In this document: piece after piece, positions 1,993 to 20,545 of the stretch | How positions within the stretch are numbered: position 1 is the stretch's first letter | How the letters are laid out: each line of letters starts with the position of its first letter | Origin: Octopus vulgaris | Lineage: Eukaryota | Direction: 5' to 3' | DNA length: 64,000 nucleotides | NCBI GenBank assembly: GCA_951406725.2 | Contig: OX597838.1 | Location: forward strand, 36,146,001-36,210,000 | Notes under the pieces: generated by a model | What the model saw: the letters and a program-made list of their open reading frames with translations, nothing else | Database searches by the model: none | Told to the model about the DNA's origin: nothing | Program-made: the position numbers and the translations under genes

Positions 1993-2842
1993 TTGGGTTG
2001 TCCGGAAAGTTCATGCCGATTTTTAAAGGAAAGAAAAAGGTCAATAAATACTTGCCATTACATTTTTAATCAACCAAATCTGAACCATTTTGTTGCACAA
2101 TGCGTCTCCATCTTTCCTTTAACTTGAAAATACCCTCTTCCCTGAACTGAGGTGGTTTCATGGCAAAGAATTCATCAAGGTATCTTTTTACGTCATCCAA
2201 GGAATTGAAATTTTTACCATTAAGACTATTCTGCAGAGACCTGAATAAGGGGAAATCCGAAGGAGTAATATCTGGTGAATATGAAGGGTGGGGTAACACA
2301 TCCCAGCCGAACTGCAGCAATTTTTGTTTGGTTCCCAAAGCATCAAGTGCTGAAAATGAACTTTCATCTTCCATTTTAAAGGGTTACAGAATTAACACAA
2401 GTTATAGGAACATAAATCTTCTTCCATGAAAAGATAGCTTAAACTGTGCTCTAAATGCAGGTGTAGTCAAATCCTATTTTATGGACTCAACCATGTTCTA
2501 AAATAAGTCAAAAGGTTATCTCTCGTGGAAGCGCCATCCAGTCAAAATGCAAATATATGGTAAGCTACCACCTGTGTCATCTCTTGCGAAAGGTAGGAGA
2601 GTCCAGTTTGCTGGACATTGTTGTAGAGCTGAAAGCCATCTACTCGCAATACCAGAGGGCGCACACTCTCCTACCCTGATGTAATCTCCAGGGATACAGG
2701 CATCCAGCAACAAGACCTCCGTAATGCCATGATGGACCGTGAAGTCTGGCGTAGCAGGGTAAATTCCATTGTCTCGACCACGGTCGAACAATGATGATGA
2801 TGAGGCTACTATAAATTGGCATGAACTTTCCAGACAACCCAA
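1993..2842 (-). mobile_element. Internally deleted mariner transposon with nested RTE fragment
   Basis: TIRs ttgggttgtccggaaagttcatgccgattt / aaattggcatgaactttccagacaacccaa with TA at 1991-1992; ORF 2066-2374 has GWDVLPHPSYSPDITPSDFPLF (mariner YSPDLAPSD motif) fused to a few N-terminal codons. Confidence 0.9.
2519..2802 (+). mobile_element. RTE-clade LINE 3' end (single copy)
   Basis: Encodes ..RRVQFAGHC..DTG..AMMDREVWRSRV (RTE-type C-terminus), ends in (ATG)n; same family as the 12-13.9 kb array. Confidence 0.8.
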
Positions 2843-11363: not shown

Positions 11364-12015
11364 TCTGATTACAGAAAAATGATGTTAATTGTCTGCATAA
11401 TCATAATATGTTTCACATCCTATGTTCTGTGTTGTGTAATGTATTATTCCATTATGAAAACCGTCTGTTTATGTATTTATTCACATATTTCTTTATTCAT
11501 TCTTTATTGCCTTCACCCTTTGAAGCACATGGCCTTGTGGTTTGGGTGTTGTGCTCCCAATCGCATGGTCGTGGTCTCGATTCCTGGACGGACCTGGCCA
11601 TACAATGCAATTTTGAGGAAACAATTTTGTTCTATGTCACTCCTGGTATCTTAGCTGTCAATGAATAACCCTGCAACACATTGGCGTAGCATTTAAGGGA
11701 AAGGTGACCTCAGCCACTTATATGTCATGGGAACTGTGTAATCAGCCCTATGACTCCTAGATCTTGTGTGTGATAGTACTTACTAAACACATATGCACAC
11801 ATACACGTGTGCACACACATATATAGTGAAGACACATGGTCTAGTTGTTGCTCATCCAATCCAAAGATCAGTAGTTTCAATTCTCAGCTCAAGCAATGTA
11901 TTATATTCTTGATTAGATCACTTCTTTTTGGGTTGCTCCAGTTTGTAAAGGAATCACAACCCTGTGATGGACTGGCATACCATTCTCTAGCCTTGGTTGC
12001 TTGTATGCATCGGAA

Positions 12016-13854
12016 TTTCTACTCTTCTCCTCTGGAAGCCATCTACTCGCAATACCAGAAAGTGCACACTCTCCTACCCTGATGTAATCTCCAGGGATAC
12101 AGGCATCCAGCAACAGGACCTCCGTAATGCCATGATGGACCGTGAAGTCTGGCGTAGCAGGGTAAATTCCATTGTCTCGACCACGGTCGAACAATGATGA
12201 TGATGATATAATGCTGTAACCCTCTGTAAGGTGTGAAAGGTAGGAGAGTCCAGTTTGCTGGACATTGTTGTAGAGCTGAAAACGAGGCAATTTCTACTCT
12301 TCTCCTCTGGAAGCCATCTACTCGCAATACCAGATGGCGCACACTCTCCTACCCTGATGTAATCTCCAGGGATACAGGCATCCAGCAACAGGACCTCCGT
12401 AATGCCATGATGGACCGTGAAGTCTGGCGTAGCAGGGTAAATTCCATTGTCTCGACCACGGTCGAACAATGATGATGATGATATAATGCTGTAACCCTCT
12501 GTAAGGTGTGAAAGGTAGGAGAGTCCAGTTTGCTGGACATTGTTGTAGAGCTGAAAACGAGGCAATATCTACTCTTCTCTCTGGAAGCCATCTGCTTGCG
12601 ATACCAGATGGCGCACACTCTCCTACCCTGATGTAATCTCCAGGGATACAGGCATCCAGCAACAGGACCTCCGTAATGCCATGATGGACCGTGAAGTCTG
12701 GCGTAGCATGGTAAATTCCATTGTCTCGACCACGGTCGAACAATGATGATGATGATATAATGCTGTAACCCTCTGTAAGGTGTGAAAGGTAGGAGAGTCC
12801 AGTTTGCTGGACATTGTTGTAGAGCTGAAAACGAGGCAATTTCTACTCTTCTCCTCTGGAAGCCATCTGCTTGCGATACCAGATGGCGCACACTCTCCTA
12901 CCCTGATGTAATCTCCAGGGATACAGGCATCCAGCAACAGGACCTCCGTAATGCCATGATGGACCGTGAAGTCTGGCGTAGCAGGGTAAATTCCATTGTC
13001 TCGACCACGGTCGAACAATGATGATGATGATATAATGCTGTAACCCTCTGTAAGGTGTGAAAGGTAGGAGAGTCCAGTTTGCTGGACATTGTTGTAGAGC
13101 TGAAAACGAGGCAATATCTACTCTTCTCCTCTGGAAGCCATCTGCTTGCGATACCAGATGGCGCACACTCTCCTACCCTGATGTAATCTCCAGGGATACA
13201 GGCATCCAGCAACAGGACCTCCGTAATGCCATGATGGACCGTGAAGTCTGGCGTAGCAGGGTAAATTCCATTGTCTCGACCACGGTCGAACAATGATGAT
13301 GATGATATAATGCTGTAACCCTCTGTAAGGTGTGAAAGGTAGGAGAGTCCAGTTTGCTGGACATTGTTGTAGAGCTGAAAACGAGGCAATATCTACTCTT
13401 CTCCTCTGGAAGCCATCTGCTTGCGATACCAGATGGCGCACACTCTCCTACCCTGATGTAATCTCCAGGGATACAGGCATCCAGCAACAGGACCTCCGTA
13501 ATGCCATGATGGACCGTGAAGTCTGGCGTAGCAGGGTAAATTCCATTGTCTCGACCACGGTCGAACAATGATGATGATGATATAATGCTGTAACCCTCTG
13601 TAAGGTGTGAAAGGTAGGAGAGTCCAGTTTGCTGGACATTGTTGTAGAGCTGAAAACGAGGCAATTTCTACTCTTCTCCTCTGGAAGCCATCTGCTTGCG
13701 ATACCAGATGGCGCACACTCTCCTACCCTGATGTAATCTCCAGGGATACAGGCATCTAGCAACAGGACCTCCGTAATGCCATGATGGACCGTGAAGTCTG
13801 GCGTAGCAGGGTAAATTCCATTGTCTCGACCACGGTCGAACAATGGTGATGATG
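12016..13854 (+). repeat. Tandem array of ~6.7 x 275-bp units made of an RTE LINE 3' end, (ATG)n tail and ~25-bp linker
   Basis: Tails end near 12207, 12482, 12756, 13031, 13306, 13581 and 13856; units are nearly identical; TSD atgcatcggaa (12005-12015) / atgcattggaa (13855-13865). Confidence 0.95.
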
Positions 13855-14284
13855 ATGCATTGGAAAGTCGGTAACTGGTTCTATGAGACCATGCGCTTGA
13901 GACAGCGTTGACATCAGAGGTTGACATCTTGCTTTACTGAGTGTCAACTTTTGCTGGGTTACTTATTTCTTATGGCTTGTCACCACAGTGAGAATGACAG
14001 GATAACATCTGTGTGCATTAAGGATGGAGCAAATACCACAAGGCATTTTTGTCCAAAAGCATCAGTTCAACAGCATTTACCTCATTGATGTTTTTCTCTT
14101 TACCGATATGCAATCACGAAAGATACACTCAGGGACAATTCATAGGCATGTCCACACGTGCACACACATGCACATTCGATGTGTCACACTCTAATATTGA
14201 ACCGAGAACCATGTGGTTGACAAACAAACTTCTTAAGCACATGGCTATACATATATAAATATCATATTTTTTTTTTGTTTTTTT

Positions 14285-19366: not shown

Positions 19367-19780
19367 AGGTGGTGAGCTGGCAGAAACGTTAGCATGCCGG
19401 GCGAAATGCGTAGCCGTATTTCGTCTGCCGTTACGTTGTGAGTTCAAATTCCGCCGAGGTCGACTTTGCCTTTCATCCTTTCGGGGTTGATAAATTAAGT
19501 ACCAGTTATGCACCGGGGTCGATGTAATCAACTTAATCCATTTGTCTGTCCTTGTTTGTCCCCTCTGTGTTTAGCCCCTTGTGGGTAGTAAAGAAATAGG
19601 TATTTCGTCTGCCACTACGTTCTAAGTTCAAATTCTTCCGAGGTCGACTTTGCCTTTCATCCTTTCAGGCTCAATTAAATAAGTACCAGTTATGCACTGG
19701 GGTCGATGTAATCAACTTAATCCGTTTGTCTCTCCTTGTTTGTCCCCTCTATGTTTAGCCCTTTGTGGGTAGTAAAGAAA
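19367..19780 (+). mobile_element. SINE family C, internally dimeric
   Basis: Same structure; TSD tagggagatac at 19356-19366 and 19781-19791. Confidence 0.88.
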
Positions 19781-20545
19781 TAGGGAGATACTGAGTTTAG
19801 AGGCTCCATTTGAGAATGAACTCAGGTGAGCAACGTTGCCACCAATGTAGACCCTGGTCTTGTGGGAATGTGCCCACACCTGCTCTATACCAATTAACTG
19901 AGTGGTCTTCCTTTGGATTTGGTCTCAGTTATTTGTGTATAGGTGGAAATGCTGGTCCCACAGTGGACTTTACTTGTCTTTAGTTTAGTAGTGTCCTTCC
20001 CTTGAGGAGGTCCCGCATTCATGAACCTTCCTTCTCAAGTACCCTCTGTATAAAAATAATAATAATGTAATTATTGTATACAGTGCTCAGGTGCATCACA
20101 ACTTGTCAGACAGTGCGTATAAAGCATATGCAGTAATGTAAAAATGTCGACTCAGGTGCAAACGCATAATTCGGTGACAGACAGGTGTGCCATTCAGGAT
20201 GAATGTTGTGCTCTCAGTCACCATGGAAACAGGGTAGCTGACCCTTTGAATCCTAGGACTTCAGTTACTAATATCCAGGACCCGACGAAGATGATACACA
20301 ACACCACCATCACCCAGTGTAAAGACACACAGAAATAAAGACACACATACACACTGTGAAACAGGGTTTTCAGGTTTCAGTATAGTTTCTGTCAACCAAG
20401 TTTCAATGCCAAAGGTTTGGTGGATCTGAAGATATACAAGAAGACACTTGCTCCAGGTATGACCCTTCCCCGACAGCGGAACGGAACCTGAAAGCATAAA
20501 GTCAAGAATTGAACTTCTTAACCAAACAGCCTTGCCGATATCCAT

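Follow-up and report, generated by a model that had tools for sequence, protein, structure and literature searches.

Structure of the array

The window (the whole 64,000-nucleotide stretch of Octopus vulgaris DNA analysed here) contains a tandem array of LINE 3' ends (Table 1). TRF places it at 12014-13856, with a period of 275, 6.7 copies and 98% matches; together with the alignment of the units, this agrees with the preliminary description, which had reported 6.7 units, the first being 5'-truncated and the last ending in the LINE tail. Unit 1 starts at unit position 82 and is 194 bp long, unit 3 comprises 274 bp, units 5 and 6 are identical, and the last unit stops at the (ATG)n tail. Successive units are joined by a linker of 24 bp, the final t being that of the LINE and not of the linker.

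The array is enclosed by an 11-bp TSD, whose two copies are identical at 10 of 11 positions, the mismatch being a CpG-type change, exactly as had been described. A TSD-like match occurred in 375 of 200,000 random genomic pairs, given a 6x10 offset box. Hence the TSD, the 5' truncation and the intact tail, that is, the features of a target-primed retrocopy, are all present. The linker is missing from both flanks of the array and from the ordinary copy at 2518-2803 in the window sequence, again in line with the earlier observation. The right flank is single-copy in the assembly (G000), where a second copy of the site was looked for and none was found.

All six linker junctions are preceded by four ATG in an identical register. 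This suggests that there was one junction event, copied afterwards, and argues against the repeated template jumps that had been considered as a source of the array. Another proposed source, a 275-nt circle, finds no counterpart in the units in the form of a ribozyme: the Rfam search yielded only one chance match, located in the flank (E = 4), and the generally known hammerhead core motif was found on neither strand.

Two other tandem structures were seen in the window, a 184-bp repeat forming a head-to-tail dimer (19416-19784) and 12.3 copies of a 10-bp unit (33734-33856).

Table 1. Features of the array and of the neighbouring LINE copy (window positions).
Feature	Position	Strand	Remarks
Left TSD copy	12005..12015	+	final 2 bases overlap the start of unit 1; from TSD comparison
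Unit 1, 5'-truncated LINE 3' end (unit positions 82-275) with (ATG)n tail	12014..12207	+	
First linker, 24 bp	12208..12231	+	six linker starts in all: 12208, then 12483, 12757, 13032, 13307 and 13582
Unit 2, linker plus 251 bp of LINE 3' end	12208..12482	+	2 differences from the majority of 23 young copies
Units 3-6, with the 113G/116T/119G variant	12483..13581	+	0-3 mutual differences
Unit 7, closing in the LINE tail	13582..13856	+	
Right TSD copy	13855..13865	+	tail-flank junction present in contigs of runs X2 and X6
Ordinary neighbour copy	2518..2803	+	31-bp internal deletion; no linker; rare 228G

The parent LINE

The body of the array is the C-terminal coding end of a LINE. Intact copies of this element have a single frame of 1051 aa encoding an AP endonuclease followed by a reverse transcriptase (Exo_endo_phos and RVT_1 above cut-off; a match to DUF6451 is below its cut-off), and the (ATG)n tail directly follows the last codon. 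A 3' tail made of a short tandem repeat is typical of RTE elements, and we tentatively take the parent LINE, as the preliminary description did, to be a member of the RTE clade. Several copies, L189 among others, retain the open 1051-aa frame, and the family may still be able to move.

The linker and its donor

Both the exact pattern and the one with two mismatches gave seven matches to the linker in 2.8 Gb, six of them in the array and one at a locus on the same contig (C25:31.876 Mb, minus strand), 4.28 Mb from the array. A DNA search with the whole unit, where 40 of 1102 candidates were scored, likewise found the linker only at this locus, which is a single RTE-like monomer and not an array. 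The monomer is inserted directly behind the (ATG)n tail of another repeat, the order being this tail, 7 bp, an 11-bp TSD, 6 extra bases, 251 bp of the LINE, its tail and a second copy of the 11 bp. For the upstream repeat, 29 matches were found in 25 of 232 records, and all nine matches reaching its 3' end close in (ATG)n.

The linker is composed of 7 bp of the donor 5' flank, the donor's 11-bp TSD and the 6 additional bases of the donor 5' junction. Thus, the donor monomer is the source of the linker, and, as the flank and the body of the donor lie between two (ATG)n runs, the array unit is exactly that donor stretch. Three other relationships were ruled out: transfer from the array to the donor, since the 11-mer is present a second time behind the tail of the donor; local duplication of a monomer with its own flank, which the preliminary description had rightly rejected, since the linker is native to the donor and came from elsewhere; and LINE 3' transduction, since the linker is the upstream and not the downstream flank of the donor.

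It had been suggested that the array represents a satellite family spreading by TPRT, in which case the linker-LINE junction could recur in arrays with different TSDs. Genome-wide, we found no second array with this linker; it occurs at two loci only, and the donor monomer alone shares it with the array. A family that spreads with this linker is therefore not supported. The more general notion holds in a different form, as other LINE-derived arrays recur at many loci, with their own TSDs (see below).

Turnover of the units

The junction between the LINE tail and the right flank of the array was recovered in contigs from two runs, X2 for organism A and X6 for organism B, a related organism; runs X5 and X9 did not cover this flank. 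Over about 430 bases, the X6 contig shows 20 differences from the array flank, as well as 3 gaps, and the flank divergence, as measured at the 3' junction only, is 3-5%. Both contigs disagree with the assembly at window positions 13911-13915, where the latter has one substitution and two additional bases, possibly an assembly error or a private allele.

If the units were as old as the flank suggests, each of them would be expected to carry 4.5-6.4 private changes, taking 14-20 flank differences between A and B. Units 2, 4, 5 and 6 have none (P at most 2e-8). As the inner units are nearly identical despite the divergence of the flank, the array was expanded or homogenised after its origin; and as they are far too alike for the age of the insertion, the array is not a snapshot of one long copied template, contrary to what had been proposed. 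Later expansion, also raised in the preliminary description, is thereby upheld, with unequal crossing-over as its presumable mechanism. The number of units also differs at two duplicated sites elsewhere in the genome (3 vs 4 and 7 vs 14). Turnover inside the array thus did take place, probably by unequal exchange.

Variants of the units and their locality

The units are polarised in the way noted before: units 3-7, as opposed to units 1-2, carry 113G/116T/119G, a combination present in neither the donor nor unit 1. Relative to the majority of 23 young copies, 8 differences were counted for the donor and 2 for unit 2, and between the donor and units 2-7 there are 10-15 differing positions. The 199T of the donor is a component of a haplotype seen repeatedly (6/87 copies), yet it is found in 0/7 units, whereas unit 3 has the donor's 228T.

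The other six of the seven units have 228G, as does the neighbour copy at 2518-2803. This allele makes up about 0.3% of the family depth in run X2. The 228G pattern gave 30 matches, six in the array and 24 at 22 other loci. Eight of these 22 loci, including the copy at 2518-2803, lie at most 4.4 Mb from the array, on several haplotype backgrounds, compared with 1/134 control copies (within 4.3 Mb; Fisher p = 4e-7), the controls being the non-array matches of three copy searches, of which three proved to be array loci. The region C25:31.85-37.30 Mb (L081-L087, L094) contains eight copies with the rare 228G and differing haplotypes, which could have arisen either by conversion within the region or from a master copy there.

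Outside the array, the variant of units 3-7 was matched 80 times genome-wide. Its source was not found among these matches; the nearest of those listed, at C25:32.33 Mb, does not carry 85A and differs in the rest of its haplotype. An interpretation of this variant as a subfamily block was dropped, 113G and 119G being common alleles (commonness was read from run depths, which are not copy numbers) and 116T a CpG-type change. We also discarded 128T as a marker of the source, as its 19 other matches are dispersed, with 0 on C25. The array bodies are mosaic.

Sister arrays elsewhere in the genome

Other arrays of the same LINE 3' end, with units of 140 bp and 234 bp, occur at at least 61 distinct loci (35 of the 140-bp family and 27 of the 234-bp family, one locus being in both). 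For one allele of the 140-bp unit there were 186 junction matches, corresponding to at least 19 loci among the 100 matches listed and one more locus from the 228G search; for the other allele, 68 matches at 15 loci; and for the 234-bp unit, 61 matches at 27 loci. The junction of the 140-bp family is a 3-bp microhomology (254 matches; 35 loci examined, L108-L127 and L191-L205). This family is present on C14-C31, with none on C1-C13 among the matches listed, and the 234-bp family (L206-L231, L118) has colonies on C8, C24, C27 and C30. Four loci (L118, L191, L197, L225) mix units of both lengths.

Sister arrays consist of 2-32 pieces each, and all but one of them stop at the tail. A TSD of at least 8 bp was seen in 19/59 parsed arrays and 26/75 parsed ordinary copies, and in about 1% of mismatched pairs. 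Loci with the same junction are clustered: a same-junction neighbour within 2.5 Mb was observed for 96% of the 27 234-bp loci (9% of controls) and for 60% of the 15 other-allele 140-bp loci (5% of controls). The contigs C27-C31 hold 22/27 and 14/15 of these loci, respectively, compared with 21/134 controls, ordinary copies being themselves enriched on small contigs. Thus, the sister arrays form megabase colonies. Variants that are private to a locus are shared by the units of one array.

If an array was inserted as a dimer, its length after collapsing the units should exceed that of an ordinary copy by one unit; vice versa, if it grew on an ordinary copy, the two lengths should be similar. For 30 of the 35 loci of the 140-bp family, the median collapsed length is 320 bp, similar to that of 64 ordinary copies, which were chosen by three variant patterns and not at random (MW p = 0.26), and insertion of a dimer is rejected (MW p = 0.01, KS p = 0.001), on the premise that truncation depends on cDNA length rather than on the RNA end. 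One duplicate, three composites and one locus starting at the junction were dropped; one mis-parsed locus was retained, and it counts against the ordinary-copy reading. Starts inside the unit are also rare in this family (2/30 vs 26% expected, P = 0.008). In the 234-bp family, the rank test does not separate the models (p = 0.51 vs 0.19); only the count of starts inside the unit does so, with 12/27 loci, the expectations being 42% and 67% (P = 0.014 for 67%).

Nearly all 140-bp arrays continue 5' of the unit into ordinary LINE sequence, and the first pieces of the sister arrays have many haplotypes. At the base beside the 140-bp junction, the first piece differs from the units in 16/32 scorable loci, in both directions, and at position 199, in the middle of the unit, in 4/35 loci. 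The same microhomology junction with discordant alleles beside it is found at many loci in both the 140-bp and the 234-bp families. On C29 (10.25-10.28 Mb; L125, L126), a monomer and a 3-unit array have a common 3' junction and about 340 bp of common flank, a pair whose direction is ambiguous, as the array could have collapsed. These patterns suggest that the sister arrays were built on ordinary, already inserted copies, so that the TSD around the window array would not by itself demonstrate a retrotransposed multimer.

Several loci have peculiarities of their own. At L125 and L126, three LINE pieces have nearly the same truncation point and differing 5' flanks. Composites at C30:1.69 Mb (L152) and C30:7.63 Mb (L218) have a common tail-linker-LINE junction with an AC-rich linker of about 115-130 bp, and their outer flanks differ, each with its own short direct repeats; this is a second case like that of the window array, again a few megabases apart, and such tail-linked pairs number two among the 175 loci scanned. 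L100 (C30:16.4 Mb) has another type of junction, with 2.8 copies of a unit of about 227 bp, a mid-unit start and a 9-bp TSD. At L030 / L231 (C30:10.03 Mb), upstream subfamily haplotypes take turns from one 234-bp unit to the next. L199 (C31) and L201 (C29:13.0 Mb) represent one insertion site with 7 and 14 units, respectively, and C31 may hold a duplicate or a second haplotype.

Possible origins of the array

We see a slightly better than even chance that ectopic template-switch repair brought the linker into a pre-existing monomer, and that unequal exchange then expanded the array. The donor monomer sits behind the (ATG)n tail of another repeat, with its body and flank between (ATG)n runs. 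At the array site, a 194-bp monomer, now represented by unit 1, would have been inserted by target-primed reverse transcription, making the TSD. Subsequently, a nascent strand, in repair or replication, would have switched onto the donor via the common LINE sequence, copied the 5' part of the donor and the linker, and then switched back, by way of the (ATG)n microhomology, to its own tail, producing a 1.7-mer with one junction; the integration of a donor-derived 275-bp DNA circle could also account for this step, but is less likely. Unequal exchange could then have extended the 1.7-mer to 6.7 units, with short conversions from family copies adding variants. Import after insertion is favoured by the donor TSD in the linker, the locality of the donor, the turnover of the units and the lengths of the sister arrays. 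Against it, no monomer allele was seen at the array site, where the X2 and X6 contigs cover the 3' junction only, and 113G/116T/119G, being in neither the donor nor unit 1, demand a third source.

Alternatively, one target-primed reverse transcription could have made a chimeric 1.7-mer (469 bp), later expanded locally. The enzyme would have either begun with an ordinary LINE RNA, moved by homology onto a read-through RNA of the donor, copied the linker and jumped at (AUG)n to a LINE tail, or used as its template the transcript of a dimer allele at the donor. Such an origin is possible, if rather doubtful. It agrees with the TSD, the tail and the 5' truncation enclosing the whole array, and its two templates account for the polarity more simply than import by repair does, assuming 113G/119G in the first template and a 5' end of the donor type; the donor's 228T in unit 3 also fits. 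Moreover, intact 1051-aa copies exist, 18/64 ordinary copies reach 470 bp, and double template jumps accompanied by a TSD have been reported for LINE enzymes (PMC2104539). However, a donor within 4.3 Mb, a distance at which only 1/134 controls lie, is not predicted; the donor has no other offspring genome-wide, unit 1 is devoid of the donor's 199T, and the sister arrays lack the increase in length that dimers would bring.

We consider it quite improbable that the reverse transcriptase circled a 275-nt circular RNA of the donor, or jumped repeatedly, and so inserted several units at once. The exact coincidence of the unit with the donor stretch between two (ATG)n runs and the mid-unit start of the array would agree with a circle, as would the size of the unit, within the range of animal retrozyme circles (PMC7229834), and 4/64 ordinary copies reach 1500 bp. 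On the other hand, neither an Rfam ribozyme nor a hammerhead core was detected, the junction lies inside an ATG run with no AG before it and is hence not a canonical back-splice, the units do not have the donor's 199T, and the inner units were rewritten after insertion; besides, 140-bp arrays running into ordinary 5' LINE sequence would need a second switch off the circle. Somewhat less improbable, though still unlikely, is that the LINE reverse transcriptase generally builds satellites by starting on ordinary LINE RNA, making a detour onto junction-bearing or circular RNAs of neighbours and returning, so that TSD-bounded arrays are born at insertion; the same low likelihood applies to the arrays spreading in megabase colonies by this route, with no ribozyme or splicing involved. 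The length test does not discriminate against such detours if truncation is set by the end of the RNA, and, if they occurred, they would constitute a local, ribozyme-free rolling-circle route from a LINE to satellite DNA. Finally, the array or its copy number is very improbably an artefact of the assembly: given the discrepancy with X2 and X6 at 13911-13915, some private unit variants may be errors, but the units have distinct nested variants, the TSD is intact, the 3' junction is present in two other runs, and 61 similarly built arrays exist elsewhere. On balance, we incline to exchange between LINE copies after insertion as a better explanation of the array than a retrotransposed multimer.

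Comparison with known systems

The closest known case is the seeding of Rsp-like repeats into 1.688 clusters in the Drosophila simulans clade (PMC7403614). There, a rare microhomology junction is found at many loci, the repeat adjacent to the junction is discordant with the host repeat, and spread by interlocus conversion or by eccDNA into loci with a homologous repeat has been proposed. Here, in contrast, the landing pad is a single dispersed LINE copy and the array consists of that LINE's own 3' end, with a TSD, a tail and a 5' truncation; moreover, one donor is identifiable from its TSD. The pre-existing repeat was demonstrated by synteny in the Rsp-like work, whereas in our case it is putative, the length test and the monomer/array pair of the sister arrays being indirect signs of it. 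Non-allelic gene conversion of ISX in Drosophila miranda (PMC4384637) similarly moves variants between dispersed copies and makes neighbours alike, but, as described there, it concerns point variants and not junctions seeding tandem arrays. In yeast break repair (PMC12891019), in-and-out ectopic template switches copy 172 bp on average, use short microhomologies and are aided by about 200 bp of adjacent similarity; that system, in the account given, is an engineered single break with no array growth, and a corresponding pathway in the present organism is putative.

Among products of reverse transcription, chimeric LINE retrotranscripts (PMC2104539) are likewise fused RNA copies within one TSD, made by single or double jumps, but their parts, as presented in that paper, are different RNAs and not tandem units, with no tie to a nearby donor stated. 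Non-LTR retrozymes (PMC7229834) form tandem units of 150-450 bp with TSDs, whereas our units have no hammerhead and are LINE coding sequence. CircRNA-derived pseudogenes (PMC4897178) contain a permuted junction in a retrocopy; the array has no back-splice junction. Cetacean L1-derived and chicken CR1-derived satellites (PMC9659126) are, as here, tandem repeats of a LINE 3' region, but the description of them gives similarity only, as opposed to the arrays considered here, which are small and dispersed, have the anatomy of insertions and in one case can be traced to a donor. As for the octopus, the main text of one repeat paper (PMC13282606) contains neither 'satellite' nor 'gene conversion', and another (PMC9115989) does not contain 'tandem'. 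In titles and the beginnings of abstracts, we found no literature on arrays seeded inside dispersed LINE copies, while repeat libraries in supplements could hold the units.

Implications

There is no settled answer to how satellite arrays reach new loci, their sources being rarely traceable. Here each array lies in a LINE copy with its own TSD, and one junction includes the TSD of its donor in the manner of a barcode; this makes it possible to test directly, across individuals and species, where an array came from, over what distance, and what the site looked like before. An array surrounded by a TSD, a tail and a 5' truncation is not thereby proven to be a retrotransposed multimer. Our observations suggest that ordinary LINE copies act as landing pads for new satellite DNA, and local exchange may distort the ages that divergence gives for these LINE copies.
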